Source: Paraspadella gotoi (Eukaryota > Animalia > Chaetognatha). From it: a DNA stretch of 64,000 bases. Below, in pieces: positions 1,075 through 59,703 of this stretch. The position numbers and the translations under genes were made by a program. The DNA is taken from positions 10,725,045-10,789,044 of the forward strand of contig CM119267.1 of NCBI GenBank assembly GCA_051294375.1, read 5' to 3'. The notes under the pieces are model-generated. The model did not search any database, was not told the DNA's origin, and saw only the letters and a list, made by a program, of their open reading frames with translations. Position 1 is the stretch's first letter; each line of letters opens with the position of its first letter.

Positions 1075-4000
1075 TTACTGAGGAGGTGGTCCGTCAGAAT
1101 ACCTCAGTTGCGGTTGCAACGACCACCTAAGGTTATTCCTAGAATGACAACAATCAGGGGAAAACAAAATGTTGAGAGCGATGAACAGCACGAGAAATGC
1201 GATGGAAACGAGGGCCAACGTGGAACGGCGGCGGAATATGCGAGATAGAAAACTGGACGAGATTCTTGAGTCGGTGTCATCTTCGGCGTCGTCGTCGTCA
1301 TCATGGGATTCGCAAATAAAAGGCCACCTCTTATCTTCAAAAGTATCCTCGACGCCTTCATCGCAAGACGGGTTCAACCAATCGGCGGCGCTCAATTCAT
1401 TAACTTCCCGACACAGAGCTCTCAATTGCGAGAGGAGAATCTCTCGCGCCGCGGAAGACGCAACTGGGAGTAACTCATTCGCCAATTCCTGCAAGCGTCG
1501 TAGGTCTTCTTCCAAAAACTCGGCGTGCCTCTCTAAAAGTCGACGATCCATTTCAAAAGACTCAAAATTGAAATCTTTCGCATCCTTCGCAGATCCACGA
1601 TTTTCCAATGTCGCTCTTCGCAGCATCTGCCCTCGTCGACGTTGAATTTTAAGTCCAAAAACAGTCTCTCCTACGAATTCATCAAACATCAACCACTGCT
1701 GAAACGTGGCTTTCAGATCGATTAATCGTTGCGCGAGCACATTCGCTAATCCTTCCAATTCTTCGTCTACTGCGGCAACGGAATCTGAGATTTTCTGAAC
1801 ATTGTACCTCGGATTTGTGTCGGCAAAGAGGATGAGGCGGCTCTGTGTCTCGTCGAGCAGTAAACGACGATCGGCTATATCGCGGCCGAGATTCTGTAGA
1901 TCGGAGACCAACGCTTCAAGACGAGCAGCATCGTCGGCGACGACGTCTGTTTCGATCCAAGACGAAACTGTGTCGCGGAAGTCGATGGCACTGAGGAGAT
2001 TGGCGTGAAGTCCCTTGAGATCCGCGCAGCGACTCTGCTTGTCCGTGGTGACGGCACGAAGGATCTCCCACCGGTCAATGATCTCCTCAACGTCGCGCAA
2101 ATCTTCGTCTGGGATGGAAGTTTGATTGGGGCATTTCAAATGCTGATGAATTACTTGCAGGCACTTGATGTTGGTCTGACAAGTGGCCAGCAGCTCCTTG
2201 TACTTGGATGGCTCTAAAAAGTTTCCCCTCTCGATCATGTCCCTCTTGATTTTTCCGAGGGTGACGTCGGTGACTTGGAGTTGAGCGCGAGATTCTTCCA
2301 GCACATGGCGCAAGTCTTCGCAGTCCGAGTCGGAGTCTTCGTCGTTTTCGCGACGCGGCGCCGCCAACGGACGAAAGTTGTAGATAGGAGGAGGCGTCGA
2401 TGATGACGAATCGGCGAAACTGAGGCGCCGGGAGGAGGCCACTGCGGCGTCTGTATCGGCTACGGCTGGTAGTTCCTCATTTGAAGCGCCAAAACCAGAA
2501 CGAACCTCGTGATTTTTGCAGTCTCCGTCTCCCAACAGCCTCTTTTCATAATCGATGTATTCCCAAACCTGATCTGATATGTAAAATTCTTCTGTTTGAA
2601 TTGGTTCCTCGTTGCCATCACATCTTTCATGTTGGGTAGCATGAATTTTGGGCAACGTGTGGGAGGCATGTGCCTTCTGTTTGGCGTTGGTTCGCGGAAA
2701 AGTGTGGCTGTTATAGTGGGCTTTCTTTAAGGTTTTCTCCGCAGTTTCGGACAATTCTCCGATGGCGAAGGGCGAAAGATCTAAGCGGTGCGATTGCTCG
2801 TACATTTCAGTGACCGATTTAGCGATTGTGTTTAATGTTGGTTCCCTGTGGAAAGTGAAATCACCTTGTTCCGAATCACAATCGGAGGAAGGAGACGCCA
2901 ACTGTTGCTCTCCCCCGAGAGAAGCTTCTTCCGTTGAGGTGTATTCTCCGCTAGCCTCACGAGACGACGGGCGACTAACCCGCCGTGCCGGCGTAGCTTC
3001 GTCCTGCTTGCGCTCGAGGGCGACTAATTCGTCCACTTCGAGCACGAGCTTCTGGATGCTCTCGCGGCCGACAAGCGGCTTTCGATGACGGGGGGGCGTC
3101 TTATCTTGGGATTCGGTCTCGGTGTGCTCAAAGTCGGTCGCCGTTAGGTCCCCCGTCAAAGAATCTGTCACATCTTTCTTAAAGATTCCGACGGAGACGT
3201 CGGAGGATTCGCCGGGGCTCGCTTCAGGAATATTCGCCAAACCGTACTTTTGCTTGAGCCGGTCAATGGTGAAAGGAGGGGCCACCTCGGAATGCACGCG
3301 ATATACGTTGACGGTGGGCGGCGGCGGACGACAGCCGGGGCCGACCTCGCCCTGCTCGGATTTTTGCGCTTCGGACAATGTGTCGAGTCCCGTGTCACGG
3401 GGAGCGAAGACTCGGGGCGAGAATAAATTTTCTTCGTCGTTGCTGAATCCCTCGGAAGAGTATCCGATATCGTGGGGCTCCGCTAATCTGCGTTTTCTAT
3501 AACTAGCGTAATTTGCGTGAGTGGGTTCGAAAAGACGCACAAGGTCTTCAATGACGCGTTCGTCATCACCCATTGACAAAACTGCGTCCTTCTCTAGCCT
3601 TTCGGGAACCAAAGCTTCCTTCGTTGGTCGCTTGCAACGACTGCAAATTTGCGGACTTCTCTCTTTTTCAAACTCGTCCTGGTCGGAAAAAACAAAGTCG
3701 TCCATAAAGCCACAACGACAGACGTTTTCAGTTCCGGTAGAAACAGAAGCCATTTGTGCGGCGGCCGCGCCCGCTTGCACGCCCGCATCATACTCAGGCT
3801 CGTTGCTGGCGACCGATTTAACTTCTGACGTATTTGGGGGATCAATGGCCTCTTTTTGAAAGATTGAACTTAAATCCATTTTACACCAACCAGAAGGAAA
3901 TGCCCTCTTTTTGTCCAGAAAGGGGGAGAGGGAGAAATTGGAGACGACCTTTTTGCTAAGACGCTCTTCAAGACAGCATTGCCATTCCAGAGCCAAGAGC

Positions 4001-5887
4001 CAAACCTCGTGCCATCGTTTTTGCAAAACGGTGGCTGTCTGTCGCAGAGAATCCTTCCTTTCTATCTTCCACTCGGCTTCTGCCGCCGGGTCTTCAATGG
4101 CCAACTGCGGCGAAGTATTTTCGTGGGAAGAATCCAGTCGGTCACAGAGCTTGAAAACGGCGGAGATGACGCGTGCTTGTGACTCGATCTCGCTCTGGAT
4201 TGACTGATACTCCTTCAGCTTCTCTTCCAAATCGCTCATTTCTTTCACTTTGCGAAGCGTCAGCGGGCCCAGACGGCTTTCAACGGAGGTGAGCCATTTC
4301 TAGAAGGGTTAAGAACATGGGAAAGAAATAATAAAGATAATGAAAAAAAAAGTACTCAATTACAAAATATCATTATGTAAAATGTCAAATGAAGTAAATA
4401 ATTTCTTTCTCGCACAAAAAAATTACAATTCACAACTCTATTTTGCACTGAAGCCGAAATACGTTCAATTATCCATTTTTTAAAAATAAAATCGTTGTTT
4501 ATTTTATAAACATAAAAAACCCCTCACCAATCAAATATAAATCGTAATGAAATGAAACCAAAAGGGAAAATGAAACAAATAGCCAAAACTCTTAACCTAA
4601 AAAAGTGACATTGAATAATGGACTTTTAATTTTTTGCATACTCCCCATTGCCCTATTACCTGCAACATGACCAAATCTTCCTCCAGATCCGTGGACATCG
4701 ACGAAAACGAGTGCGATCCTCTCCTACAATCTTTGGTGAAGGAGGGCGACCGCGATGCGTCGTCGACGAAGGACATTTCTAGGGTATCGTCGGCGGTTGG
4801 TCCGCCACTTATCTGCAACTCCAACTCTTTCCATTGGCGGTTAAGAAGTCCCAACCGGGTGCAGATTTCGTCTTTGAGATTCGGAAAGCGTCGCAGCAGT
4901 TGCCGGGCGTACTCCTTGAAGAGCTTTCGCCGTGGAGACCTCTCCATCATTTCTTCATGATAAGTCTAAAGAGCCAAAGAAAAATATGTGAGACTGTGAG
5001 AGAGTCTTAATTGAAAGCTTGCAGGGACCTGCTATGTCATTATCTTGTAAGAGTGATGGAGGCCTTAAACCACCAAAGCCTGTCCAAAGTCAGGGGCAAG
5101 ATAGCTTATTTATTAAATGAATGGATAATTTTTATATTGGTTGTACCAATTTCATAACAATTGACAATTTGAAAATAATGAAGGAGGAAATTTAATCTCA
5201 ATCAGACCAATAACCTGGTTCATGTATTTTTCCGACTGACTGTGCACCGTCTGCAAGGATATACTCTTCATCCTCTGCAGCCAGGCCGAAAGCTCCTTGT
5301 ACTGCTCGAGGAACTCTGTGAAGGAGACGCTAAAGGTGGGCGGAGATTCCGATTCCTCATCGAGCGAAAAATCGCTCTCCACATCTTTGCACTTCTCGAT
5401 GAGGCCGTCGTCCATCAACTCGTCGTAGTGTTTCTGGATGGAGGACCAGAAATCCCCTTCCTTTTCTCCGTAAGCATACGGATGCCCATAGGAAGAGCCG
5501 GGAGGACTCGACTGAGGAACCGATAATAAAAAGAAAATGAGAATAAAAGAAGGTAGAAGATAAAAAGTATAAATCGAAGGAGTTTAAAATCATTTAGCCT
5601 ACCTCTCGAGAAGATGCTTCGGGAGACGAAGGCGTTTTTACACCGGGAGTGGTAAGCGCGCTGTTTGGTGGCGCCCGGAGTACGGGACTCAAGGTTAAAG
5701 CAATAGGAGGGGTCAGGTGCCTCGGACTGAGATGCACCGCTCCAGGGCCGCTTCGGTCATATGGTGCCGGCGAGTTCCGTTTGTAAGGATCGTCGGCGAG
5801 AGAATCGGTGGAGGGCGATGAAGGATAGGGACTCTCCAATCCTCCTTCGGTCGAAGGAGAAAAATTAAGAGGATCGCCTAAATCCAT
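1075..5887 (-). CDS. Klarsicht/nesprin-like KASH-domain outer nuclear membrane protein (4 exons)
   Basis: Exons ~5887-5603, 5511-5215, 4965-~4660 and 4299-1075 are joined by GT-AG introns. Spectrin-like repeats are present (e.g. QKRWHEVWLLALEWQCCLEE). The C-terminus is a TM helix plus a luminal KASH tail ending ...LRYSDGPPPQ (PPPX). Confidence 0.85.
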
Positions 5888-6673
5888 GTTTCTTTTTTTC
5901 TGGGTCTTAATGAATTAATCTCATCGAAGCGGGGTAGTTTTCGTCTTTAAACATGATTGTTGATTAGTAACCGAATCCTTCAAAGCTTAAGGTTGTTTTC
6001 TTGAGATTTGTGAGATTTGTTTTGTCTTTTGTTTACAGTTTTATTTATTTAAGCAGGCTAATAGGTGTTTGTGAATCGGAGAAAGATTTTGAGGATGTTG
6101 TTTTGATTTTGAGGAAAAAGATTGGAAGTTTTAAAATAGATTTCCGATCCCCGTAGACATCACAGATCATATTCTTAAATCATGAATCAACATAGGCGAA
6201 AGGTTTAGTGACATTTTTTGCTTTTGTTTTTTGCTTATTTGTTATCAATCAAGAACAGATGAGCACCAAACTGATGTGAATGTTTTTATCTTTTTTCAAT
6301 TTTTTAAATCCAAGTTTTGCTTCGTTTCCTCCTTCGCAAGGAATACGAGACTTAATTACGTTTCTTTCTAACTTTGATCGGTGCCATAGTTTAACAGCAC
6401 GCCAATGAGATACCCTCTCATAGGGGTATCGGAAGTCCTAATATGCAAAAAGATTCTACGAAAATGTCAAAAGAATAAAATAATTAATGAACAATCGCAA
6501 AGAGAACAACTTAACTACATTAAAATATATATAAAAAAAGAATAATTTCGAAAGGAGGACATTCAAAATGAAATTCTTCTCAATTATAATTTTTCCAGGT
6601 CTTTGCGATCTCTTCGGCATAACTATAAAACCTTCAGGTTTCCAGTGATCTTGGCGGACGTTCGCGCTGGATT

Positions 6674-6868
6674 TCACTTCTTCCCCGACTTCTTGATACC
6701 GCCCTTGGCCAATGGTTTTCCGGCCTTGAGACTCTGCGCCAACTCGGCCGCCGCCTTCTTATCCGCCATTTGTTTCTTCTTGAACTCGACGTCGGTTTCG
6801 TCTTCGAACGTCTCGCCTTTCTTCGCCTGCTTCAGGGGCTTCTTTTTCCCTCCTTCTCGGCCGGACAT
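6674..6868 (-). CDS. TMA7: Translation machinery-associated protein 7
   Basis: 64 aa, MSGREGGKKKPLKQAKK...GGIKKSGKK. Both termini and the length match TMA7. Confidence 0.95.
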   Translation of the reverse strand: MSGREGGKKKPLKQAKKGETFEDETDVEFKKKQMADKKAAAELAQSLKAGKPLAKGGIKKSGKK

Positions 6869-7073
6869 TGTCTCTGTCTCGCACTTCCAGACGGAGGTAG
6901 GAAAAAAGTTTTTTACTTCATAAAATTAAAACAACAACGAAAAACCGTTTAACAGAATTTTCAACAAATATTCAGTAAAGCCGTATTTAATTCAAAAATA
7001 TAAAAAAATATTCAACAAAATTTTGATGTATTGGCACTTAGGATTAAACACTTTACATCATTGTAAATGGTCT

Positions 7074-10000
7074 CTACCAAGAGGGAACGCCGAACCTGGC
7101 GATATTTTTGTGTTGCGCCGTCAAATCCTTTCTGGCTTTCTCTCTCATGTAAAATATTGGGCAGTCGTTGTTAGAGCAAACGACTTCTTCGTGCAGCATT
7201 CCTTGGCACTGTTGACATTCGGTCCACAACCGAGCGAACTTCTCTTCCATCGCCCCCATCTTTTGGATCTCGTTCAAATAGATCTCGCCTTCTCTCGGGG
7301 AGCAATGCTTGCATACGACCATGTTCTCGTTGGGTAACAAAGCCTTGCACCCGATGCATGTGGCCCTCTTTTTCGTGAATGCGGCCAAACCTCCGATAGT
7401 TGAGTGTACGACGGTTTTTGAAAGGGTGTGGTCCCCCTTAAAAAGCACCGAATTGGCGCGAGATTCACCGAGAATGGGCTCGAAAATCCGCATCAAAGGA
7501 TTTGTCAACTGATGCTCAAGATAATAGTTGGTGTCGATGGGAATGTTGTGTTCCAAGACGTAGAGAGGATCTTCACTTTTCATGAACGCCGGGGTGCCTT
7601 TTGAGGCGGCGATGATAACGTATGGAACGCGGTCACCGAGTTGCGGCGCCGAACCGGCGTCGCGCTGCCGCATACGATTAGCCAACTCGACGTGCGCCTG
7701 TTTGGCCGTATACTCTTTCTCGGAGCGAGTGAGTTCTTTGGTAACGACGAGTTGAGAGATGTCGACTCGGTTGCAGAGCAAGTCGGATATCGTCTGCTTA
7801 GCGTAATCAACGGCGGCGTTCGGATCCCGTTTTATGAGAATGAGATGAAGGCAGGTGTTGATAAGGTTGGCGACGAGAGGACAGTTGTCCCGGCGAACTG
7901 TCTCGATGCCTTTGCAGTCCATCTTGTCGTAGGTTTCCGGTTTCGTAAAGTAGAGTCCGGCGTACCGCTTCTTGTTGATGAGAAGATACGGAAAGTAAAC
8001 TTTCTCGAACTCCAACTTGATCGGTTTGATAAATTTTCCCGAGACGATTTCCGCAGCTTCTCTGCCCAACTCCATCGCTTCGGCCACGGTATCGACGCCA
8101 AACTTTACCATGACAGAATCCGTGTCCCCGTAAATGACTTTGGCGTCGTTGTTGTAACCGTTAGCAATTTGGTACTTAGCTTCCACCTCGTTCTTCGTCT
8201 TTTCAATCATCATCCGACCAAAAGCGGTCACGCTCTGAGAGATTTCTAGACAGGGAAGCTTTCCAACCTGGGCGCCAGTGAAACCGTAAACCGAGTTAGC
8301 GGAGATTTTGAGCGCCAACTGGCGGCCGTCCAAAACGCGCTTTCTAAGTGGATCCGTTTCCTTCTTCAAATCAGCTTTAGCTTTTTTTCTAGCAGAAAGC
8401 AAGGATTCCAGGATCTCTGGCAAGAGACCCTTGCGAAGGGAGCTTTTGACAAAATGATTGCCTGATGGTGTGCGAATGTAGTCATCGGCGCTGAGGTTCT
8501 CCCTAACAGAAGCAGTGACAAGCGTGGTGTAGCAGAGATTATGAGCCATCATAATAGAGGGATACAGGGAAGCGAAATCGAGCGTGGCTATTGGAACATC
8601 GTAATATCCTCGAACGGGCTCGATGACAGTGGCTCCCTCAAAACCCTCGTCTCCTCCTCCCTGACTTTGATACGTCGGCATTACGAGATCTTGGAGTTTG
8701 GCTTTTCGCAATAACTGGGAAACGACTTTGATTGACTGACCGCGTGACAAAAGATAATTCATGGGTACCCCAGTCACCCTCGCCATCTCCATATAGTTGA
8801 TGACGCACATTAGTTTTTCCATCAGTTTGATCGGCAGCCAAGCGTCTTTGAGGCAATAAATGGCGAGACGACGCCGCGTTTGCTCATCGCCAGCCTGCAA
8901 ATCCGAGATGGTAGAATGATGCACGTCCTCCTTCTGCTCTTGCAGAAAATGAAAAGAGACGGCATTTAGCGTGTAGGATCGCAATTTGTACTCTCGCAAA
9001 AGAAACTGGAGCAAGTCGAACTGAACACGACCCTCGGTGTTGGTGAAGTGATTTTCCCTCTTGCCCATCTGCTTAGACTGAAGGGTCGAAACTTTGTCCA
9101 CCGTCCTCAGGTCTCTCACGCGGCCTAAAAACGGGAAGGACACACAACGCAAATGATCCGCCCGTTTCACCAGGTACGGAAAGTCAAAATTTTGGATGTT
9201 GTATCCGGTGATGATATCGGGATCGATTTGGCGGATAAAATCGGCCCATTTTTCCAGCAGTTCCTTTTCGCTCTCGAAGGATAAGATTTCTGCTCCGACG
9301 ATGGGGGCGCAAGATTTTAGGGTAAAAACGTTCTTTACAAAGGGTTCCGGCGCGCCGTTCGTGACAACGTTGGCGATTTGAATAACGGGATCTTTGTCCG
9401 GCTCTGGAAAAACGCCTTTTCGCCCGGCGCACTCTATGTCGAAACTAAGAACCCGTAAGGGCGCGACTTTGCCGTATTCGCCCTCGGTCGAGTGCGAGAT
9501 TAAGTCCTTCCAAGCGACGTCGACTTCGATCTGGCACCGAGTTTTGCTTGCATGCTTGCCCTCTCCTGGGTACCTCCGATGATATTTTCCGGCCGGAATC
9601 GTGATCCAATTACAGCCCACGACGTCGGCGTCAACCATAAAGCGAACCTCAAAGTCAATGTTAGCCTCGTAAGCAGAGAACTGCTGTGGCTTGAAGACGT
9701 CGGCGACGCCGAACCCTTGGTCCAGGAGTCGTTTAGCTGGGGCGATGAGTCGAGGTAGAGCCACGGTGATTTTGAGGAAGGTGAGCTTTTTGTTGTAGTG
9801 AAAGCCATACATGCTCTCTCTGATGCAAGTCTCTACGGCAAGAACGGGATCCGTTATGTTCTCTCGGTTGGACCTCATGTCGTTCTTGACAACGTTGTTC
9901 AAAGCCTGGCGAAATGCTTGACAATCTTCTGCGCGAAAATCAGGCGGGGCCGTCACGTAAAAGTATGGCAGAAAACCGTGGACGTGAACGGCTACTGAGT

Positions 10001-10367
10001 GGTGGTCCATTGTGATGCCGAACATGCGGATGACGGCCACGTTCGATTGTCGAGATCCCGGCATCCCCTTTAACGGCTCGGCGATGTAGTGGTCGGTGTC
10101 CATCTGTTGGAATGTGATGTCCATGTTTTTGGGATTAAACGTCGACGGGACTTGTGGGCGTGCCCACTTTGATTTGGTACAAAAGACGTCCGGACCCTTG
10201 GCGCCGCTTAAAGGAAGAACGTCCTCCTCAGTTTCTTCCTTTATTTCCGCCTCGATGTCGTCCATCATCGCCAGTTCCAATTCAAAATCGTCTTCTTCCT
10301 TCGAGCGGGATTTTTTGTTAGGACCCGCACCGTCTGACGACCCCGCCTTTTTGCGCTTTTGTTCCAT
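7074..10367 (-). CDS. POLD1: DNA polymerase delta catalytic subunit (single coding exon)
   Basis: 1097-aa ORF with ExoI SFDIEC, motif [10 protein letters not shown], motif [10 protein letters not shown], motif C YGDTDS, and C-terminal CysA/CysB clusters. Confidence 0.98.
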
Positions 10368-10638
10368 ATCTCGTTTTCCCGTTATCCTTGTAGATAATCA
10401 AAGCGTACAAAAAATTGAATCACCAAACTTTAGAATATAAAGAGTATAACAAAAATATATCAATATGTCAATTAGGCCACAAATTCTAAAAAGGATATAA
10501 ACAACAGACAATAGAAAAAGTGAAAAATGGTATCACTGATAGAATTTCGCCTACGACTAAGTTATGCCGATAACCATGAACAATGCCGCTTCTTGTTTTC
10601 CTATTAACCCCAAATTATTTCGTAGTAGTTCTAGTTTT

Positions 10639-12109
10639 TCAATTGCCATTTGACGCCCGTCGTTCAATCTTGGCCCGCAAAATTTTCTCAAGTTTAATGG
10701 CGTCGGCAGCGAATTTTCGAATTCCGTCGGCTAACTTGTCAGTCGCCATCGCAGATTCGTTCATCATCCAACGGAAATTCTTTTCGTCCATGGGAATCTT
10801 CTTAAGATCCATCTTTTGAGCGGCTGCAACGCTCAGCGAAGGCTCCAACTCTTCCGCTTCCCTGTCTAACTCGGCCAACAACTTGGGGCTAATGGTTAGC
10901 AGATCGCATCCGGTCAGGGCTTTGACCTGAGAAAAGATTCATTTTTTTCCTTACCATTAGACACCTAAATCTTGAAAAGAGGGTATATATATATTAACCT
11001 GTCCAACGTTGCGGAAACTGGCGCCCATGACGACAGTTTTATAACCGAACTTTTTGTAGTAGTTGTAAATTTCTGTGACGCTTTTGACGCCCGGGTCGTC
11101 ATGGGGTTTATAAGTTTTCTGGTCCGTATTTGCGACGTACCAATCGAAAATCCTGTAATGAAAAAAGTTAACAGCGGTTGGATAAAAAAATTACGGAAAT
11201 TTTAAAAGAAAGACGGATTTTTCCCGACCTTCCCACGAAGGGCGATATGAGTGTGATACCGCCTTCGGCGCAGGCGATCGCTTGAGCAATGCTGAACATA
11301 AGAGTCAGATTGCAGTGAATTCCGTATTCCGACTCGAGGACCCGACCGGCCTGGATACCTTCCCATGTAGAAGAGAGCTTTATAAGAATCCTCTCTTTGT
11401 CGATGCCTGAAACGAGGAAAGAATCCAACTTTCATAACTAGAATAGTATTGCTCAATTAGTCTTGCTCAATGCTCATTTATCGTTTGAAAGTCAAATTGT
11501 TTCTTTTATCTTTTTATCGTTTTATCGTTTTATCTTTTTATCATTTTTATCGTTTTAACTGTCAAATTGTTTCTTTTATTTCAGAAAAAAAAAAGAATAT
11601 GAAAGACACAAAGCTAGTTCAAAAGCAAGAAAAAGTTCTACCGGCGGATTTGTAGAGTCTAATGAACTCTCTAGCTTTCGCTATCATGGCTTCCTTGTCA
11701 AAAGAGAGTCGTGCGTCGACTTCCGTGGAGACACGACCGGGAATAATTTTGAGAATTTCGCAGCCGAACAAAACTGCAACTTTGTCCATTGCTGCTTCCA
11801 CCTAAGATACGATCATATTATGTTATTTGGCCTCACTCACCTAATTTAAAATGATAACTTTCTCGACGAAAAAAATGTCCAAACCTTTTCCTCGATGTCT
11901 CCTTTAACGGCGGCTCCATGCTCGACAGCACGATCAATCAGAGCCCCGTACTTCTCGATTCCCGCCGCCTGGAGAATTAAGGAAGGGTTGGTGGTTGCGT
12001 CCGTGGGTTGGAAGACGACCATGGATTCGAAGTCGCCCGTGTCGGCCACGACCACCGTGTGGCGCTTCAGTGAATCCAACGCCGAGGGACTCGATTTCTT
12101 GGTCGCCAT
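10639..12109 (-). CDS. TALDO1: Transaldolase (5 exons)
   Basis: Exons 12109-11885, 11801-11642, 11406-11229, 11152-10999 and 10926-10639 are phase-compatible. Motifs [46 protein letters not shown]. Confidence 0.96.
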
Positions 12110-12404
12110 CTCGTTTTTGTTCTTCGGTCTATCGAAGTCGCGATGGATAAAACTTAGATCCTCTCGCGCTGGAAGGTTAGTAATAGTAGTTCTGAAATTA
12201 AACCTCAGAGATTAAAACGCCATCTCATGATAGGCGAAAATAAATAATAAATATGGAGATTAATAAATCGAGAGTGGTAACACGAGAAAAATTATGTTGG
12301 ACACAATGGTGCCTCTTAAATCGAATCCGATATATTACGTAAAAATTGATTGTGTAGCTCTAACGCTAACCGGACCAGAAGTAAAACGTGACAGTTTCTA
12401 GTTT

Positions 12405-15117: not shown

Positions 15118-15156
15118 GGTACAATAATTCTCGAAAAAGATCTTTTGGACTGCTAC

Positions 15157-15175
15157 CTAAACATGAAAAGGGTAT
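15157..15175 (-). promoter_or_regulatory. Candidate trans-splice acceptor upstream of the 2OG gene
   Basis: Minus strand CCCTTTTCATGTTTAG|G lies ~40 nt before the ATG and ~83 nt after the LMF1 stop, preceded by a U/G-rich tract. Confidence 0.55.
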
Positions 15176-15240
15176 AATTTCAAGAGCAACAAATCTACGA
15201 CTAACTACACAAATTGTTAAAAACTACAAACTCAAAAATT

Positions 15241-40500: not shown

Positions 40501-40662
40501 GTTGTCTGGATTGTCGCGCAATTCGAAGCGATCGTGCTTGGGTTGAAAAAGAAAAATAAGTAGAGTTGAAGTACGTATGGCTCTTGTAAACCTCTCTCTT
40601 ACCTCAGAAGGATGAATATTAAAAGGGTGTATCCCGTATTCATTTGTCATCTTTTCGTCCAT
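37525..40662 (-). CDS. DEG/ENaC (ASIC/FaNaC-like) ion channel subunit with giant extracellular insertion
   Basis: Pre-TM1 TTWHG, TM1, FPAITFCNQN, TDFGLCHTFN, G.G.SYGLRLTLNTEQYEY, Cys-rich thumb, and TM2 LLCDIGGAMGLFVGASILT. Short 5' exons splice to the long exon 39967-37525. Confidence 0.92.
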
Positions 40663-47651: not shown

Positions 47652-48857
47652 TCATCGCCCATCGAGAAACCACCCAGGCAGAAAAACGCAAGCGGAGTTT
47701 CTCGGGCACTTCCATACTAAGATCTCTTTGCGAGGTTCGAAACAAAAAAGGACGACGTCGGCGGGATCCTGCGAGGTCGCAGAGGCCTTGACTTGGTCAA
47801 GAAAATGATTCAAGAATCGCAGACAGACTTCCCCGTTCCACGAATCCGACACGCGGCTCGCCCGAGTAGGCAACGACAGCGTTTCCATGGCCTCAAGTCG
47901 ACCGACACGTCCTTCGTCGTCGCGAAATCCGCACACCACCTTCGGGATCCCGAGGAGGTAAGATTGAGCCCAGAACTTGAGCGCCTTGAAACGCCAAAAA
48001 TTGTCCCGCTGTCGTTGAGAAAACCACTCTCGCGAAGTTTTTAATTCAACGTATTCTGGCGAAGGAGTCCTCTCGTTAAGGCAATCGACTTCGCCCGCAA
48101 ATAATAGAGCGTGTTCGTTCAATTTTGATCTGACTACGCGACAATAACCTTCACTGTTGTTAACGGGTTTTGCGATATCCGGAAGGCCATTCCGTACGTC
48201 GCTCGTGACGTACTGTTCGAACTTGTAACCCCAGTAGGACATTCGTTTCTGATCCTCGTTTTCGCTCTCGCGTTGCAAGAGTCGAGATTCCGTTTCAAAG
48301 TCGACTAAAAACCAAGTTTCTCTAAATTTCGAGGCAGCGACAATCCAACCGTCGCGCTTTTCGAACGGCGCCGTCATGACTTTGGTCAACAATCCGCGCC
48401 AACACACAAAATCGACGCCGTTTAGATCGACTCCATTGGCGACGATCCACCGCAAAACAAAGTCGAGGTATTCTTTTTCGGAATCATCATGCCTCTGGAA
48501 CTCGGAAAACCCGACGGTGAGGTCCATGTCGACGCAGTTCCAATCGCCATCAAAGGCGAAGAAGCGTTTGGCGCGAAAGTCGTTGTGGAATCGACGCCGA
48601 TCGTCGAGCGAGAATTCCCCGACCTTCAGCGGCTGCTTGAAGACGATGGGGGACGAACGTGGGAGACGTAGTGTGGGATTTAGAGGGATTATTCCGCCAG
48701 AGACGGAATGCCGAACCAGTCCAGTAACATCGGGCTGGGTGCGTGATCTGTTGTCCTCGGGGTAGCATCGCGACCAACCCTCTAAGAAAGATTTTTTCGA
48801 AGGTGGACCTTCTTCATCCTCCTTATTCTCAGCAAGTTTTCTTTTATTTTTACTCAT
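47652..48857 (-). CDS. DXO: Decapping and exoribonuclease protein (Dom3Z/Rai1)
   Basis: DFVCWRGLLTK, YWGYKFEQY, GEVDC, YVELKTS, KFWAQSYLLG.P.VVCGFRD. First in-frame ATG (MSKNKRK) is at 48857. Confidence 0.95.
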   Translation of the reverse strand: MSKNKRKLAENKEDEEGPPSKKSFLEGWSRCYPEDNRSRTQPDVTGLVRHSVSGGIIPLNPTLRLPRSSPIVFKQPLKVGEFSLDDRRRFHNDFRAKRFFAFDGDWNCVDMDLTVGFSEFQRHDDSEKEYLDFVLRWIVANGVDLNGVDFVCWRGLLTKVMTAPFEKRDGWIVAASKFRETWFLVDFETESRLLQRESENEDQKRMSYWGYKFEQYVTSDVRNGLPDIAKPVNNSEGYCRVVRSKLNEHALLFAGEVDCLNERTPSPEYVELKTSREWFSQRQRDNFWRFKALKFWAQSYLLGIPKVVCGFRDDEGRVGRLEAMETLSLPTRASRVSDSWNGEVCLRFLNHFLDQVKASATSQDPADVVLFCFEPRKEILVWKCPRNSACVFLPGWFLDGR

Positions 48858-49021: not shown

Positions 49022-51013
49022 TTACTTTCGACCGCTCGCTTTGCCCGACGTTTTGTCAGAGTAATCTCTGGCCCTGCTTTTCCTTTCTTCATTTTCCATA
49101 CGGGCCATTTCTTTTTCGACTGCTTTGCGAAACGTGGTTTTCCTTTCGGGATGCCGATAATAGCATCCTTCATTTTTACAATCTTTAAATCGGCAAAGCA
49201 ATCTACCCATTTTTTCTTTAGCTCTTTCTACGCCGTTTACTCGCTCCACGTCCTCTTGCAATTCACGCATTTTCCTATTACCAAAAAGACGATGGTAGTA
49301 CTCCCATGAGAAGTTCCGGGTCGGTGTCATCCTTGGACAGCGGGAACTAAATGAGCGTCGACATCTTGAACGGTCCGAATCCGACTCGCGAGATCGATCC
49401 CGAACGGGCGAACATAAATGCTCCCCATCAGACGATGAGTTACGAAATCTTTCTTTTTGTTTCAATGTGTTGCAATCACGAGAAGGCTCACAATCCTGGG
49501 TCACCGGCATATGATTTTGGTCAGAGCCTGTCGCCCGTTCTTCCATTCTGCAGGTTTGCGATAACTCGTGATTTTCCCTTTCATCTTCCAAACAGTGAGG
49601 CGAAGCATCTTCCTTCCTCGAATTTTCGGAAATAAGCTCTCGCGCAGATTCCAGGAGTTTCGTCAACGAAAAGTTTTGAGAATGGCTCCCTGAGAGAATC
49701 TTCCTCCTTTTCGGCTGTACCGACTTCGAACCGTGCATTCTTGAAAAGCCGACGTCGACAGAACTGGCGTAGGAAAGTTGATGCGTCGGCAACGGACGAA
49801 TCAACGGGGTCACCGTCGTCTTTCCGGATTGAAGCCTCGAACGAGTTTCCATCTGGTCGCTGCCCGGGCCTTTTTCCAGCGTGGAAACGACCGAGGAAGA
49901 TTTGGAATCTGTAAACGAAAGTCCTCTCTTTCGTGGAGTTTTAAATGAGGAGGAAGGAACGAGAACCGGAATCATTGACTTCTGGACTTTTTCCGACAAT
50001 TTGCCGTCTTTTTTCGAGGAAATACTACGAGAAATAAAACTGCTTGCTGGCACCGTATTAGACGATTCATTAGAGAGAATCCCATAAATATTATATATGT
50101 CCTCGTCTTTGTCGGGGACGTAGATGATGGGGATGCCATCGTCAGAGGCGACCACTCGATCGGTGGATTCGGCTCGATCCGAATGGCAGAGAGAAGACGA
50201 CTCATCGTTCGCTGAGGATAGAATCTCGATTTCGGAAACGCGAAAGTGCGAGGCAGAAATGGGAGGAGAGCCCGCGGAAGACTGGTATCCAGGAAAACCT
50301 TTCGTGATGTCTCCATCCTGTCCGCTCAACAATTCGTTTTTAACAAAACAATTAGTTTCTCCTGAAGAAACTCCTCTATAAATTTTCGAGGGCGTTTCCG
50401 GTAGAGCCCTAATGTCGCTAGTCTCGCCGGGTTCGGCGGAAAGAGCAACGGACCTGAAGGGCGTCTCCTTCGTTGAAGCGTTTTGGCCATCACGTCCTAA
50501 AAAAGGCGAAAAGTCAACTTCTTTTGGAATAGAAATTTCGAGGACATCGGACTTTTTGTCGCAATGACTTGTCTCGTCGTGAATCCCCGAGTCGTCCGCC
50601 TCAAAATGGTTCCTTTCACTCGCTACGTCCAAGCCGGAAAAGTCCTCCATACGATCGTTATCTACGTAGAGTACGGTACGCGCCGCTTGCGACTCCACGC
50701 TGGCTGAAGAGAAAGCCTGCGCCTCTAACTCGGGAAGCTCGATCTTTTGAACTGAGGCGACGCCGGAAGTCGGCGAAGATGAAGCCATCGCGACACAAAG
50801 ACGATGTTCGGAGCGCCCCCGATAAAACCGCTTAACCTGAATAGCTTCCGAAGTGAGATCGCAACGACGGACCACGTCATCGAGCATTGTCTCCACGCAG
50901 CTGATGCACAGTTTGTCTATGTGTCTGTTCAATCGGCTGTTTAAAAGTCGCAAGTCTTCAACGATGTTTTCGTGCAGAGTTATGCACAGCGTCATCACAG
51001 ACTGCCAATCCAT
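49022..51013 (-). CDS. Uncharacterised largely disordered Ser/Arg-rich protein with C-terminal CCCH-type zinc-finger-like motif
   Basis: Uninterrupted 663-aa ORF with CRFKDCKNEGCYYRHP near the C-terminus and an acceptor-like TTCTTTTTAAAG shortly upstream of the ATG. Confidence 0.72.
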   Translation of the reverse strand: MDWQSVMTLCITLHENIVEDLRLLNSRLNRHIDKLCISCVETMLDDVVRRCDLTSEAIQVKRFYRGRSEHRLCVAMASSSPTSGVASVQKIELPELEAQAFSSASVESQAARTVLYVDNDRMEDFSGLDVASERNHFEADDSGIHDETSHCDKKSDVLEISIPKEVDFSPFLGRDGQNASTKETPFRSVALSAEPGETSDIRALPETPSKIYRGVSSGETNCFVKNELLSGQDGDITKGFPGYQSSAGSPPISASHFRVSEIEILSSANDESSSLCHSDRAESTDRVVASDDGIPIIYVPDKDEDIYNIYGILSNESSNTVPASSFISRSISSKKDGKLSEKVQKSMIPVLVPSSSFKTPRKRGLSFTDSKSSSVVSTLEKGPGSDQMETRSRLQSGKTTVTPLIRPLPTHQLSYASSVDVGFSRMHGSKSVQPKRRKILSGSHSQNFSLTKLLESARELISENSRKEDASPHCLEDERENHELSQTCRMEERATGSDQNHMPVTQDCEPSRDCNTLKQKERFRNSSSDGEHLCSPVRDRSRESDSDRSRCRRSFSSRCPRMTPTRNFSWEYYHRLFGNRKMRELQEDVERVNGVERAKEKMGRLLCRFKDCKNEGCYYRHPERKTTFRKAVEKEMARMENEERKSRARDYSDKTSGKASGRK

Positions 51014-51634: not shown

Positions 51635-54600
51635 TCATAGTCGTCCACCGTAGACTGGGTTTCTATAAGTCGTCTTGGCTTCCTTATAGATTGGATTTTC
51701 GCCGCTATCCCACTTGGCGTTCTGGCGCTCAGCCTCAAACTTGGCGAACTCCCGACTATCGGAGATCGTGGTGTAAAGCTTCCAAATGAGGAGAAGAGCC
51801 AACCCCACAGCAACGATGCCGATGATCACGCCTACAGAGAGTATTGGACATAAATAAAACGTTACAAAGGCGTTACAAACAACGCTATAATCAGAAGATT
51901 ACAGACCTAAAATAATGGCGAGCAAATCTATCTCTTGCGGACAAAGTTTCTTCTCTTGAACTCTGATAAAGACGCGGTTTTCTTTGTCGTAGCGATAAGC
52001 GAAGAAAAAGTTACAGTCGTCGGCTTCATCTTTGAACTGGCATCGTCGGAATCCCCCTTCTTCCAAAACCTTTTTTTGGCATTGGAAATGGTTTTAACTT
52101 TTCAAAAATAATCTAGTCAAGGCATTTCGCTATCGGCAATATGCAATTATAAAACAACATTCAATTTTCGTCCCTCTAACGTACCTCCTCTGGGTCTGGA
52201 AGAATTTCCATATGAAACTCGCATTCGCCATCCGGGTGGCATTCCTCAGGAGACCTTGGGCGACCGCGAAAGGCTCGGCACTCGACACAGTCGCGATACT
52301 TCTTACAAGTTCCTTTGCACTTAGGACAGTCTTCACAGGTCGGCCCTCGGTAAGTAGAATTTGTGTTACATCTGCGAACAAAAGTTTTCATCGTTGACAA
52401 AAGTTAAATAGGGTTAATGGCTAACAGAAAATTCTGACCTGCATGTACCGCACACGCAAGACCCGTAACCGTTGCAAAGTTTTCCGTTTGAGGCGATGCA
52501 GGTGGCGTTAGAGGTGGCGCATGCGCAGTCGTTTCCGGTAAAGCCAGGCTCGCAGCTGCATTTTCCACATACGCACTGGCCACGATCAGCGCCCCCACAG
52601 AGTTCGCCCTGTCGAACGGAACCAATTCATTACTCGGCAAACGGTCAAATTCTATTAGACTCAAGTTACCTTATATCTGTCGCAATTGAAGTTTTCACAC
52701 TCGCAGAAAGGCCCCGATATGATTTCACCCTTGTTTGGCCTTTTATCGCACTGGCAGAGGCCACACATACACTTTCCCTTTCCGGAACACACTTCCGTTT
52801 GGTTTTCTTTTCGGCACGTTGCTTCGAAGTCTGTCAAATCTAAAAATAGGAGTTCAATCAATATCTTAATAGGAGATTAGGTTTTCTTTTTTCCCGCTTT
52901 ATTACAGTATTTTAATGAATGTACCAATGTTGTGATGAGCTGGGTTTTCACTTTTTTCACTTTTCACTTTTACAAAAGTTAAGAGCGACGAATTACAACG
53001 AGAGTTTATGTCCTACAGTTGCATCAACTGTACCATAGGTTTATTCTCATACTTCCTTTTAATCGGTCAGTCAGAAATGGTATGTTAATGTTATCAGATA
53101 ATATAGTTTATAAGAACAGTTTCTCGTTAACCAACCTGGGTCAGTCTTGGAGCATTCGCACAAACGTCCGTATCGGTCATCGTGGCAAGTACATTGCCCG
53201 CATTCAAACGTTCCGTTTCCTGCTGTGCACCTTAAGCGTAAAATTATAATCCCGATTACTAATGACATACATAGATAATAGGTAGTCAAAAAAGGTAATT
53301 ACAATCGCAGAAAAAGGTCAAGATCGACTAACCTTGGGGAAAGAGGCTCCTCGAATCCCTCTTTTTCGCAGTCGCACTCGCAGACCGAGTGGATCTTGAC
53401 CTTTAGGACCTCATTGAGACCGACGGGTTTGATTTTGACGACTTGGCGCCTACGAGAGGGGCATGCTCGAGCAACGAGTTCCACCTCGAACTCCACAGTT
53501 TCGTTGATTCCGACGTCGTTGCAGATGGGCGTCTCTTTGAGTTCAGTCCCCTTGCACCTACTGAAGAACTTAACTTGGACATCTTCGGAGTCGCTCTCCG
53601 CCACCATCTTCACCTCGGAGGAGATGTCTCTGTAATTGTCGCGAATGAGTTCCACGACGTTGTTGGAATCCCGGGCTAAGCGAGCCGCACGGGAGCCTTC
53701 GATGTGGTCGGCGAGCCGCTATAGGAAACATTAAGGGAAATAAATATCAAATGGTAAATTAAATAAAAGCTTATCACGACTCAATGAAATTAAAGCTATT
53801 TCTTTCACCTTGTATACAGGAAGTTGTTTTTCGGTGACGGCGAAAATGATGTTGACGCTGTTTTCACTCACCGCGTGATTGATTTGGGAAATGGACGGAT
53901 AATCCTAGGAAGAGATATAAAAACGGGAACGCAGGGAAACATTTTAAATTTAAATTTCAGATAGCATAATAAATAGTTTAATTACATATAAATGCGACAT
54001 CAGTCACCTGTATCGTCGAGTATTCATATTCGTAACCGTTGGCGTCCAAATGGCAGAGTCCGTCATTGGGTTCAACGATGCCACCCAATTTTCCGTCGCC
54101 AGCGTAGTGAAACTCGGAATCCGTGGAAAACAGAAGTAGTTTTCGGGAACGCTTGCGCCAGTTGATTGCGTCGTGACAAACGACTGCCTGAATAAAGTTG
54201 TAACTAAAAATGTAACTTATTTATTATAAAAAAGATAAACGTAACAAAATTTGCCCATTCAAAATTAACAAGGGCTTGTAAATAGACTTCAGCGATGTCA
54301 ATTGTTTAGGTTTTTTTTCCTCAAGAGACGTCGCGACGAAAGGAAAAAATTATGTGAAGATTCCATTCCCATCCGAATATAAACAAAAGTCATGCGGACG
54401 AGCAAGAGCTTGACAGATATGTCATTTGCCTCTTCACACACAATCCCTTTTTTTGCCCGTTCTTATCAAAATGTCAAAACACGGAACAGTTGGCGACAGA
54501 GGAATTCCCGCGTCGAATTCAAAAAAAGGCCATTACCAAAAATGGAATGAGAGGAAAAAGGGAAAAAAAATTATGGGCAAAATTTTCGCAACCTCAATCG

Positions 54601-57086
54601 CAAAGGCGACGAAGGAAACTAAAAGGAAACGAAAACACTAGATTTTTAAATGAAAAAAATTCATAGTTTAATTTATAGCTCTGGTGCTTTCTTTTTCCAA
54701 CTCATTTGAAATTGACATTAGCAGTGCCTTAAAACATAAATTTCATAGTTAACTGGATTCAAGCATTTTTATTATAGAAGTAATAGAACCAATTTCATAA
54801 TAAGTAATTTTCGTGGGCAGCCGAAGCGTAGGAATAGCAAAATATAATATATATTTTTTTTAAACAAAAAACGATATTATATCTGATAAAGAGAAACCTG
54901 AGGGGAGGAGATTGAGTAATTGATGCACTACCTTAGATTCTCAAAAACTTGTACCCACGTTTTAATCTTAAAACCCTTCTAAATTTCTTCGATTGAAGCG
55001 GTCTCAATAGAGATTTTCTATAAGGATAAGACCGGAATAATCACTTCTAAGGATCAGCTGTCTTTGACTGTAACGAGACGTTTCCTTTGAATGGGAATCT
55101 CGTTTAAAGATTAACATTAAAATAACTTCAAAATTAAAATTAACAATATTGGTGGGATGGGGTATTTTTGAATAAACTGGGTTGGTTAGAAACTATGAAT
55201 TATTGTCTCTTAAAATGGCCCTTGAGAAATTGATTGAGCGCGATAACTACAACAGAGGAGCGATCACGAAAGTAAGCCCACTTCAAGCCTTTCATTCGGG
55301 CCAGGATTTCCAAAAAGGAAGACGACGAAGACGTAAAAGCAGATTCTGACTAAACTTGAAACTTTTTTATGAATTCAAATATTTGATTGCTACCATTATA
55401 ATTATTGACATAATTAAAATAATATCTTTTAACGACAATTATCATAATTATAAATATCAATTCTATTATTATTGTTATTATCATTTTAAACATTATTATT
55501 ATTGTAAGACATAATATTATGTTATTGTTATTATTATTATTATTATTATTAGAATTTTCAAAATAAAAATAATATTTTATTATAAGGGTATTAACTGTAG
55601 AATCAACTCGGCTTCTTACCTGCATGATGGCGTCGAAACCTCCTTCAGGAGCGTCGAGGTTTCCACTGACTTTGGCCTCTTTGACTTTGGAGGCAAATTC
55701 GCGGTGGTTTGCAGTGAGAGGAAGGTCGTTCCGAAATCCGTACGGTGGGGCGCAGTCTTTGCAAGGCTCCTTCAACTTTCGCTCAACGGTGGAGACGTAA
55801 GGCATCACCTAATGAAACGATCCGAAAAAAAATACAAAAAAGAATAAAAATAAAACAGAAAAAATAACAGAAAGAAAATTCTACGTACAAAGAAAGAGAA
55901 AGAAAAAAAAGAGACAAAAAGAAAAAGAGAGAAGAAAGGAAAAAGATGTATGACGTCTTCGAGTGGATAATCAGCAATTATGACCAGAATCGTCCCACTT
56001 GAATCAATAAAAATATATACCATGGGAGTTTATCAAAGATCGATGTAGAAAACTAAATAAATACTATATATAAGCCTATGAAATACTAAACGATCCGGGA
56101 TCCACAATTAAGTTGCTCAATGCTCAATTACTCATCCTCCAACTTTCACTACATATAATTGATACAAAAATTACAATTTTTTAACGAGTTCTTTATGAAA
56201 ACTGGAGAAAAAACGATATTTTTGCGTACCGTTTTATCGACAAACGATCCAAATCCTAGTCGAAAATCTCTTGTTATTTTCTCCATCTTCTGTGCGAGCT
56301 CGACACCGAGAGTCGCGAGTTTGTCTTTGTCGTCTCTCATGGAAGCGGAGAGATCCATGAGGTAATAAAGATCAACTGGGTAATCCGCCTCCTGGTGATA
56401 TTGAATCTGAGTGGGAGCGAGGGTTGGACAAAAATATTTAAGAACAAAAAACAGAAACAAGTTGGCGAATTTGAAAGTCTTAGAAAGACAACTAAAGCAG
56501 AATCTGAAAAAATGTTCTTTATAGGAAAAATGGAAAGAAATATATTAATAGACGCTGGTACTAATCATTTTCACCTTGAATCTGGCGGGAGACTTTGGTC
56601 TCAATTTGACGTTCATCTCCTGAGGATGAATCTGAACCCGACCGTTGGATCCCAAAGGTTTTTGTTTGGTGACAATGGCCTCGCTCTTTTCGTTCCGAGG
56701 GTGGACATTCTCGATTCGGCACCCAGCGGCCCTGAGATTCTCCACAAGGTCACAACGGGAATTACCCGATTCCACATAGTCGGCCTGTTCGCACCACCCG
56801 CACCTTAATGGAAGTAACGGCCACGATGTATTATATTCAAATAAGAGAAATAAGTTAAAAATAAGTTAAAAACCATACCAAAAAATGAGAATATTTGTAA
56901 TTTGTAATTTGAATGAGTCCAGTTTGGCCTTTAGTACCTCGGATCAGCGACGATGCAGGGACCGCAATACTTTTGCTCTGTGCAGACGGAAGCCTCTTCG
57001 TCGAGGGATTCAGAGGCGACGAGAAGGAAAAAGCCGAGACAGAGGAAAGAAGACGTAAGCGCGTGGTCGATGATCATCCTCATCAT
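51635..57086 (-). CDS. Integrin beta subunit (multi-exon)
   Basis: Signal peptide, PSI cysteines, [15 protein letters not shown] (MIDAS), [27 protein letters not shown]-like repeats, TM, and a cytoplasmic tail with NPIY and NPVY motifs. Confidence 0.96.
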
Positions 57087-57377: not shown

Positions 57378-58066
57378 AAAAAATCTTAAAAGTATAGTGG
57401 TCTTGCCAGACGTTACTATCAAAGAAAATTAATAAAAAAATCCGAAAAAAAAAGAATGATTGATGCGATAATAAATTATTGATGTATATAGTAATTGATT
57501 GATTGATGTAATAGTAATTGATTATTGATTGGATGATAACCAAATATTGATGCAATAATAATCATATAATTAAAAAAGATAAAAAAAAAAAAATAAAATA
57601 AAGAGAAACTGGACAGCCGCTGAAGCAGATTAATTTGTGGATTATCTCATATTGTCATATATTGATTAAGCTCTGATAAATTTTTGTTCTATTGTATTAA
57701 AGGTTTAATATTAATATTTCACATTGGTAAATGATTATGTTTATTTGTGGTTCAATTAATAGCTAAATAATTAATGATTTAATTATCATAATTGTTAGTT
57801 TATAACTTTAATTATTCTTATACAGCTGCTGCAGAGCTGAACTCGTCTATATATAAAAAATTAATTTGTAAATAAAACAAGCAAATGAGTATAGGAAGAT
57901 AAAACATAACAATTTAAAAGACTTCAATGATGAAAAGCCATATCTAAATTGTCAACTTATGATTTCACACTCGAGCTATTTTTAACATTAAAATACCGTA
58001 ACGACGACGACGACAATGATGGTCAAAAAAAGCAGAAACGAATTAACATCTCGTCTGGCGAGATAA
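57378..58066. mobile_element. Helentron/DINE-like non-autonomous repeat, family B, copy 2
   Basis: Homologous to 13062-13970. Subterminal IR GCCAGACG (57405) / CGTCTGGC (58052), terminal hairpin ATCTCG-tctgg-CGAGAT, and a (GAC)n tract. Confidence 0.65.
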
Positions 58067-58161: not shown

Positions 58162-59703
58162 TCAGTATTTCTCATCATTTGTGACAAATTCTTCCTTAAT
58201 GCTTTGGACATTTTGGTCACTGTCGTTGCACAACTCCCTTTTAGCGTTTTGAACGTCTAAATACGACAATTGACTATCGACTGAACGTTTCCAACGAGAT
58301 CCTAGTTTATTGGCATGATTTCTTAGTCTTCCACGCCCAAAGGAAGAGGGTCCAACGCTTATAAGCCCCATTCTTCCTAACATTCCACCGAAATGCAACT
58401 TTTCACGACCATTACGAATGATAATTTTATCTCTCGACTGAGCCTTATCATGTCCATCTTCCTTTATTTCAGGAAAATCATCGTTATCCGACAGATCAAC
58501 CGTCAAATACAATTTTTCCTTTAATTTCATGTACTCCTCGTGCGTTTTAACAATCAATTTTTTCTCGAACTTATCAGTTTTTTTGACCATTACTAAGGTA
58601 TTAAATGCGTCCACTTCAGATCGGTAAGTCACAAAAAGGGATCCTTTAAATTTTCCACAATGTGAATGACCATTACGATATAACTTGTAGACAAGATTTT
58701 CAAAGGGAGCAGCGCTGCTTAGAAACGGCATAATATCTTGGGAAGTTGCATTAAGAGGAAACCCTTTAAGGTAAAGCGTTCGGCGTCTTACATCCTCAGC
58801 CCAGAGCTTTTGTGCGTCTTGCAAAGGAGAAGAGTCGTCATCTTCTTGTTCCTCACTCGGGAGATACAATTTTCGATCTAAATTACATTTTTTCTTCAGA
58901 CGCTTTAAACAATTGTGGTAATATCCAAGACCTAATTTTCGTAGGGTATTTATAACGTCCGTCTCATTCAAATTTGGACAGGAACTTAGCCATTTATCAA
59001 AACCGGTTTTAAACCAAGTGTTCACATCATAACCTTTCAAACCCTCAAAAGGACACGTCATGGCGAGATTTTTCGAAACTTTGTACATAAGCTTGTTAAC
59101 AATTCTTCTTGCGCAACTTCTTTCAGTTTTGATGTCCTCGACTTCCAGCAAACTTGTATTTTCAGGCATCGGCTGTTTGAGTTCAGAAATTTCAAGCGTA
59201 TCTTTGTGATTCAAGCAATAAGCCGCAAACTTTAACTTATGACCCTCCTGACTTTCAATAACAAGCAAACCAAAAACTTGACCGCAAGTAACGTGAAAAT
59301 GGAGATCGCAATCAATAAAATCACAACGCCTACAAACTCCCTCCACTCTTTCACAAATATTGCATGCTTTTGCGAAAAGATTAATAAAGGAATTTTCATG
59401 AGGTAAAATAACTGCATCCATTTCGTTTCGATTACAAAACTGCACCTCAGGAACGAACAGGGCACAAATTACATGAACCCAAACACCAGTGACAGTCCTT
59501 ATAAAAGCTCCTTGACGCTGTGGACAAAGCTGACAGGTCACTTCTTTTTCACCCGCTGCACATTTCTGACAAAGCCACGGAAAAGTCGGTTGAATAAATA
59601 TGCCATAGCAAAGTGAATGTGCTGGGATACAGCATTTACTGCAAATTAATAGCTGATTGTAAGGAAAACTACCTCCTAGTGAACAAATACTACACGTTTC
59701 CAT
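58162..59703 (-). CDS. PZP (PHD-Zn knuckle-PHD, AF10/BRPF-like) plus La-type RRM protein
   Basis: C..C...N.L..C..C...H..CYG...W.C.KC; CQLCP...GA....G.WVHVICALFVPEV; C.LHFHVTCG. Later DVRRRTLYLKGFPLNAT and FKGSLFVTY. Acceptor TTGTTTCAG at 59722-3 precedes the ATG at 59703. Confidence 0.85.
   Translation of the reverse strand: METCSICSLGGSFPYNQLLICSKCCIPAHSLCYGIFIQPTFPWLCQKCAAGEKEVTCQLCPQRQGAFIRTVTGVWVHVICALFVPEVQFCNRNEMDAVILPHENSFINLFAKACNICERVEGVCRRCDFIDCDLHFHVTCGQVFGLLVIESQEGHKLKFAAYCLNHKDTLEISELKQPMPENTSLLEVEDIKTERSCARRIVNKLMYKVSKNLAMTCPFEGLKGYDVNTWFKTGFDKWLSSCPNLNETDVINTLRKLGLGYYHNCLKRLKKKCNLDRKLYLPSEEQEDDDSSPLQDAQKLWAEDVRRRTLYLKGFPLNATSQDIMPFLSSAAPFENLVYKLYRNGHSHCGKFKGSLFVTYRSEVDAFNTLVMVKKTDKFEKKLIVKTHEEYMKLKEKLYLTVDLSDNDDFPEIKEDGHDKAQSRDKIIIRNGREKLHFGGMLGRMGLISVGPSSFGRGRLRNHANKLGSRWKRSVDSQLSYLDVQNAKRELCNDSDQNVQSIKEEFVTNDEKY

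Follow-up and report, generated by a model that had tools for sequence, protein, structure and literature searches.

A 17-gene, one-strand cluster in chaetognath DNA is probably a row of operons resolved by spliced-leader trans-splicing

Why should 17 genes of unrelated function, spread over 59 kb, all be read from the same strand of an animal genome? The question is raised by the 64,000-nt stretch of contig CM119267.1 shown above (the window, in what follows), in which such a cluster spans positions 1,075-59,703. We propose that the cluster is probably several operons in a row, whose precursors would be split up by spliced-leader (SL) trans-splicing, each gene giving its own capped mRNA. As such it is a new example of a known chaetognath trait, and its run of 17 genes on one strand exceeds the longest operon reported for the group, which has nine. 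A preliminary description had suggested either one very long operon or a chain of operons; the chain of SL-resolved operons is supported by the chaetognath placement of the DNA, by spliced RNA contigs that bridge neighboring genes and by an indirect leader fit at TMA7, while a single very long operon is the less likely reading.

The gene models were rebuilt from the sequence, and all 17 read on the minus strand from ATG to stop with no internal stop codon. Forty introns, every one GT-AG, are distributed over eight of the genes, and the coding sequences of the other nine are intronless. Pfam supports 14 of the 17 genes (13 at E < 0.01, plus LMF1). None of 70 plus-strand open reading frames (ORFs) of at least 80 aa reaches the Pfam cut-off, in a scan that covers no short exons of novel genes, and the earlier statement that every supportable gene lies on the minus strand is thus borne out. 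Seventeen co-oriented genes lie in the window, which includes neither end of their run. Inspection by eye also picked out, at 61155-61223 (minus strand), a small segment that looks like an exon and has strong-looking splice sites; it may belong to the PHD gene as an upstream exon or to an 18th gene, and the latter, if real, would lengthen the run. Within the window we found no Rfam match and, in a bacterial promoter scan that is irrelevant to this host, no promoter. The genes in their order from 59,703 down to 1,075, with the predicted trans-splice acceptor in its place, are as follows.

58162-59703, minus: PHD/zinc-finger gene; intronless coding sequence, 513 aa; Pfam zf-HC5HC2H_2 and PHD_2, weak RRM_1 (E = 0.064); may have upstream exons.
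51635-57086, minus: integrin beta (ITGB); 12 introns, 795 aa; Pfam Integrin_beta; model intact.
49022-51013, minus: CCCH-like ORF of 663 aa; intronless; C-terminal finger, with zf-CCCH_2 (E = 0.023) as the sole match; the weakest gene call.
47652-48857, minus: DXO/RAI1 decapping nuclease; intronless; Pfam RAI1 (E = 1.5e-91).
42267-47171, minus: CAMSAP/patronin; intronless, 1634 aa; ATG at 47171; Pfam CAMSAP_CKK and others.
41250-41644, minus: 103-aa gene, family unassigned (orf103); two exons; two relatives at 71-72% in ENA assemblies.
37525-40662, minus: ENaC/DEG channel; 3 introns, 965 aa, long insert; Pfam ASC.
32090-34774, minus: PGAP1, glycosylphosphatidylinositol inositol deacylase; intronless, 894 aa; Pfam PGAP1.
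27227-32008, minus: homeobox gene (HOX); 4 introns, exon joining predicted; begins 81 bp past the PGAP1 stop; Pfam Homeodomain.
22242-23480, minus: BTB-BACK gene; intronless; ATG at 23480; Pfam BTB and BACK.
17944-18540, minus: NUDT16; intronless; Pfam Nudt16-like; predicted first gene of a long RNA contig.
15241-17688, minus: LMF1; 10 introns, 545 aa; Pfam LMF1 and LMF1_C; three introns match RNA joints.
12405-15117, minus: 2-oxoglutarate (2OG)-Fe(II) oxygenase-like gene; 3 introns; RNA joints; Pfam E = 0.031.
10639-12109, minus: transaldolase (TALDO1); 4 introns; Pfam match; RNA joints.
7074-10367, minus: DNA polymerase delta catalytic subunit (POLD1); intronless, 1097 aa; Pfam match.
6915-6917, minus: acceptor predicted for trans-splicing; the AG is at 6917-6916 and the exon starts at 6915; the TMA7 ATG follows 47 nt downstream.
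6674-6868, minus: TMA7; 64 aa; Pfam TMA7.
1075-5887, minus: KASH-domain gene, which we take to be klarsicht-like; 3 introns, 1370 aa; Pfam KASH; RNA joints.

The placement of this DNA comes from the transaldolase gene, for which a search with the first exon returned JGI, Logan and MERC proteins at 70-81%. One locus from plankton (L001), the only one of 80 to carry the leader, is intron-free and transcript-like, and it opens with 26 letters identical to the final 26 of the chaetognath leader SL2.0. The window TALDO is sister to L001 together with 12 related proteins (ultrafast bootstrap 100), with identities of 75-80% to these vs 59-69% to 23 others. Since TALDO groups with L001, which bears SL2.0, a chaetognath affinity of the window is very likely, as judged from this one-gene tree and the leader fit at TMA7.

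RNA contigs were aligned to positions 700-16,900 of the window, the upper genes lying outside that stretch. Of the sampled words, 0.83 occur in run X1, which is taken as spliced RNA because of its splicing and because two long spliced contigs account for its depth per bin; runs X2, X3 and X4 contained little of the window. Among the 15 of 49 joints listed, 13 are skips, all of them GT-AG and on the minus strand, so that cis-splicing of introns is shown by RNA in this stretch. The first long contig (record 3, 9,197 nt) runs through LMF1, 2OG, TALDO1 and POLD1 and the second (record 2, 5,228 nt) through TMA7 and the KASH gene with the 786-nt spacer between them; both drop the introns and keep the spacers. 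Hence four of the five junctions in the aligned stretch are bridged (LMF1>2OG, 2OG>TALDO1, TALDO1>POLD1 and TMA7>KASH), in each case by contigs, which are not single molecules. The spacer at the fifth, POLD1>TMA7 (6933-7067), is in neither long contig, a gap that proves nothing. The offsets in record 3 equal those of the intron model exactly (370 = 370 and 492 = 492), and the LMF1 bin depths agree with the model up to 16883. From the remaining length of record 3 we infer that it begins near 18,686, beyond the aligned stretch, and thus includes NUDT16; its 5' end matched no one single acceptor. Residual depth in the introns was -1 to 5 in six of the seven intron-containing bins examined and 14 in the other, compared with 157-179 for the contigs, and these near-empty introns rule out DNA contamination or unspliced RNA as the cause of the bridging. 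Run X2 (share 0.06) contained one 345-nt contig identical to 6480-6824, at TMA7, with a depth of 5.8, which was not used as evidence.

The start of record 2 is where the leader itself may be glimpsed. It has eight unaligned letters, and its first aligned piece has seven mismatches, of which two are listed and five are absent from the variant table; this table omits differences near piece ends, and the lists for the other four long pieces are complete (for record 1, two of three are listed). The sole AG in 6940-6896 ends at 6916, and joining SL2.0 at this AG (6917-6916) gives exactly five mismatches over 6932-6916, compared with eight for SL1, nine for SL3.2 and eight for SL4.2. A shuffled leader gives exactly five with P = 0.0035. 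The implied leader length is 25 letters; on L001 it is 26, and 24-26 would be expected at a graph branch point with k = 31, a value that is assumed. The leader 3' end is absent from the window. The evidence that record 2 carries a non-genomic 5' end fitting SL2.0 at TMA7 is therefore good but indirect, being a count of mismatches in letters that are not themselves displayed. Small-indel alleles were also considered as the cause of this 5' end, and none of 186 fits. Leader addition, seen indirectly at TMA7 and directly for the TALDO orthologue of a relative, is likely for the remaining genes as well. Directly after the predicted junction, at 6914-6903 (minus strand), stands an A5+CT5+ motif, the single copy on the window's sense strand; the same motif lies just past the leader in L001 (27-50), in a different gene, and these are two cases only.

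The spacing of the genes fits the same picture. The seven short stop-to-ATG spacers given in the preliminary description are all exact on recount: PGAP1>homeobox, the tightest, has 81 bp, LMF1>2OG 123, CCCH>DXO 164, POLD1>TMA7 205, NUDT16>LMF1 255, TALDO1>POLD1 271 and 2OG>TALDO1 295. These are the seven of 16 spacers under 300 bp; nine are longer, among them TMA7>KASH (786 bp) and four over 1 kb, which lie before ITGB, PGAP1, BTB and NUDT16. Most of the non-coding DNA had been called A-rich on the plus strand, that is, U-rich in the sense direction, and indeed the sense strand has T>A in 14 of the 16 spacers (p = 0.004), as it does in all eight windows of the upstream flank at 59.7-64 kb. Repeat cover was obtained by comparing the window with itself, which underestimates repeats, and amounts to 0.80 for BTB>NUDT16, 0.15 for ENaC>PGAP1, 0.14 for PHD>ITGB and 0.04 for HOX>BTB, the last being about half transposon-like once a 1.77-kb element bounded by inverted repeats is counted. 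The suggestion that the larger gaps are largely transposon insertions therefore holds for BTB>NUDT16 and for about half of HOX>BTB and is not shown for ENaC>PGAP1 or PHD>ITGB. Two elements enter here.

25278-27046, no strand: element of 1.77 kb whose ends are perfect inverted arms of 21 nt, the flanking TA included; from its sequence, likely a non-autonomous DNA transposon.
19800-21810, no strand: fold-back repeat with a second copy at about 28100-29890 in homeobox intron 4; direct and inverted families.

Three candidate blocks are likely from these data: NUDT16-LMF1-2OG-TALDO1-POLD1-TMA7-KASH, PGAP1-homeobox, and ITGB/CCCH-DXO-CAMSAP-orf103-ENaC. The best-supported of them is the seven-gene block from NUDT16 to KASH, an operon candidate near the published chaetognath maximum of nine. 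In our proposed mechanism, RNA polymerase II (Pol II) would start at a few block heads, most likely at the spacers of more than 1 kb, and would then transcribe through every gene of a block. Some tens of bases 5' of each ATG, at an AG that is unpaired, the spliceosome would attach the 36-nt leader, giving capped single-gene mRNAs. The 3' end of the upstream gene would form near the leader-acceptor AG, as in the RPS14-PCNA operon of Spadella cephaloptera, where the intercistronic gap is 3 nt (PMC2481426). The upstream 3' untranslated region (UTR) would then occupy most of the spacer and a few uncut molecules would join the contigs. With the 3' end so close to the next AG, spliced RNA would cover the spacers while the introns are empty.

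Several observations weigh against this proposal. A contig across two genes is not equivalent to one transcript, and overlapping UTRs would look alike; above 16.9 kb the evidence for the blocks consists entirely of spacing. The alignment end at 6932 is reproduced by one of four scoring schemes, four leader forms were tried at TMA7, and no leader-like sequence appears among the 24 of 344 loose contig ends listed. Splice acceptors preceding the ATGs do not clearly outscore background: the score before the 17 ATGs, two of which were misplaced, gives p = 0.053 vs random and 0.28 vs after-stop windows, and a simpler score gives p = 0.03 and 0.25, respectively. Developmental and neural genes are under-represented in published chaetognath operons (PMC12460157), and the cluster includes a homeobox gene, an ENaC and an integrin. 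A POLD1 tree placed the window with a fluke (0.96) and contained no named chaetognath. Strong pyrimidine-AG sites do lie within 100 nt upstream of the ATG in the PHD, CCCH, DXO, CAMSAP and 2OG genes. The search for POLD1 homologues gave a best full-length identity of 68%, hence no close relative, and we discount the tree as uninformative, its link to a fluke being probably an artifact of long branches.

How far can co-orientation by itself carry the argument? The chance of 1.5e-5 quoted in the preliminary description is correct as arithmetic but too strong as a statement, as it applies per window and ignores operons and genome-wide multiplicity. A simple independence model with the published Paraspadella gotoi operon counts predicts about 0.65-1.1 runs of at least 17 genes per genome, and the window alone therefore cannot show an unusual genome architecture. 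By calculation, runs of 17 genes would become common at a same-strand fraction of 0.83. The expected number of runs bears on the idea of a single transcription unit, 59 kb long or more, in which Pol II would start above 60 kb and read through all 17 genes and the repeats, with trans-splicing freeing every mRNA in a trypanosome-like manner. Orientation is indeed kept over nine spacers of more than 300 bp (0.5^9 = 0.002) and over four of more than 1 kb (0.5^4 = 0.06), the sense-strand T>A skew persists in the large gaps and over the 4.3 kb of upstream flank, and a second locus looks similar. On S. cephaloptera bacterial artificial chromosome (BAC) 35A21 the 14 named genes that have an orientation given and are not transposon genes are all on the plus strand, over 120 kb and across seven gaps of more than 1 kb (Table S5 of PMC2481426). 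That count leaves out rows labeled or grouped as transposons, a tyrosine recombinase and one row without orientation, and the four minus-strand rows are all among the transposon rows. However, BAC 35A21 was picked from a pool for its co-oriented clusters, the table lists SwissProt-matching predictions only (PMC2481426), the length of record 3 implies a start near NUDT16, and a run of this size is about what chance would supply once per genome. We consider a single unit unlikely.

We think it distinctly unlikely, too, that the genes are separately promoted, many of them trans-spliced from short outrons, with 3' UTRs abutting or overlapping the next 5' region and an orientation that is partly chance. 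Most trans-spliced genes of P. gotoi are non-operonic (PMC12460157), contigs cannot tell overlap from co-transcription, and the TMA7>KASH spacer could house a promoter, but the spacers of 81-295 bp must fit a 3' UTR, a 5' UTR and an acceptor, which leaves scant promoter room. Four of the seven short spacers also lack both AATAAA and ATTAAA; this absence is within chance, and no excess of poly(A) hexamers was found in the short spacers. Stable uncut polycistronic mRNAs of the green-alga type, translated by reinitiation or leaky scanning, would explain why the assembler followed the genomic path over four of five junctions in intron-free RNA. The SL2.0 fit at TMA7, the monocistronic SL2-bearing TALDO transcript of the relative (L001) and the upstream ATGs present in several spacers make such mRNAs highly improbable.

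Set beside known systems, the cluster is closest to the chaetognath operons. In P. gotoi nearly half of the genes are trans-spliced, 18% are operonic and the longest operon has nine genes, operons being defined by gaps of <250 bp (PMC12460157), and PMC2481426 describes chaetognath leaders, one operon and further co-oriented genes on BAC 35A21; the leaders have no reported positional specificity (PMC12460157, PMC2481426). The window shares with these the phylum (as placed here), the leader family, unrelated housekeeping genes arranged head-to-tail and short gaps, and the BAC also has a long one-strand run. It differs in having 17 co-oriented genes, compared with nine in the longest called operon, and in holding gene classes reported as depleted from operons. 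Parts of the cluster may already stand among the published operon calls (supplement of PMC12460157). Tunicate operons, those of Ciona intestinalis and Oikopleura dioica, are similar in that a non-specialized leader resolves polycistrons with a near-zero intercistronic distance (Ciona median 1 bp), and unlike in that Ciona operons have up to six or seven genes and the leader and lineage are different (PMC7986045). In nematode SL2-type operons the downstream mRNAs are likewise freed by trans-splicing, but nematodes use a dedicated downstream leader and intercistronic regions of ~100 bp (PMC7986045). The chaetognath name "SL2" implies no homology with nematode SL2.

Kinetoplastid directional clusters hold tens to hundreds of co-oriented genes genome-wide, with every mRNA trans-spliced and initiation at cluster heads only. 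They resemble the window in their long one-way runs of unrelated genes, many of them intronless, and in trans-splicing (PMC2936537, PMC1805754). However, their near-absence of cis introns does not extend to the window, where eight of 17 genes are interrupted and joints were seen in RNA, and trans-splicing affects only about half of chaetognath genes (PMC12460157). In the available main text of PMC12460157 the terms "strand", "orientation", "intergenic" and "unidirection" are absent; a Flaccisagitta enflata preprint (10.1101/2025.03.14.643333) does not discuss operons in its text, nor does an S. cephaloptera preprint (10.1101/2025.01.31.635879) in the part available. We found no account of long directional gene clusters in chaetognaths or other animals in the literature searched, subscription papers being mostly outside it.

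Two chaetognath loci from different sources keep to one strand, for 14 and 17 genes respectively and across multi-kb gaps, so that such long one-way clusters of genes may be a trait of chaetognaths that has yet to be described. If the reading as directional clusters is true, it is a genome architecture that we have not found described for any animal in the literature searched, and if co-orientation is genome-wide, an animal would have moved towards trypanosome-style transcription.

The gene structures touch on the same theme. POLD1, PGAP1 and CAMSAP are intron-rich genes in most animals, and here each is a single exon (7074-10367, 32090-34774 and 42267-47171; 1097, 894 and 1634 aa), whereas LMF1 has 10 introns and integrin beta 12. 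The three are possible retrocopies captured by operons; if this is true, trans-splicing may let promoterless retrocopies enter existing transcription units. A broader version, which we regard as doubtful, is that the genes of arrow worms lie in one-way clusters that resemble those of trypanosomes and measure 60-120 kb or more, each with one or very few Pol II starts, that transposons are read through while trans-splicing frees the genes, and that retrocopies joined behind acceptors without a promoter.

Several features of individual genes were also noted. G+C at third codon positions is 0.33 in LMF1 (15241-17688) and the PHD gene (58162-59703) vs 0.50-0.75 in the other genes measured in frame, and two decapping enzymes, DXO (47652-48857) and NUDT16 (17944-18540), share the cluster. 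In the predicted homeobox protein (489 aa) the homeodomain is C-terminal, ends in WFQNARAK and is presumably ZFHX- or LIM-like, and the N-terminal region has no Pfam match. The ENaC/DEG protein (37525-40662) has, between its two Pfam-matched stretches, an insert of several hundred residues that looks helical. For the 103-aa protein (41250-41644) an Atlas search gave no usable match, and the only two relatives found are both ENA records, one of which seems to share the exon-2 border; the protein is possibly restricted to chaetognaths. The 2OG gene (12405-15117) matches 2OG-FeII_Oxy_3 clusters in the Atlas at 0.95, where recognition is low, and its nearest Atlas clusters are mostly fungal, which is no demonstration of transfer. 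An AT-rich minisatellite lies in a 2OG intron (13150-13610), with a related copy before integrin beta (57440-57570), and a short repeat in a KASH intron at about 5030-5160 has a very high contig depth.

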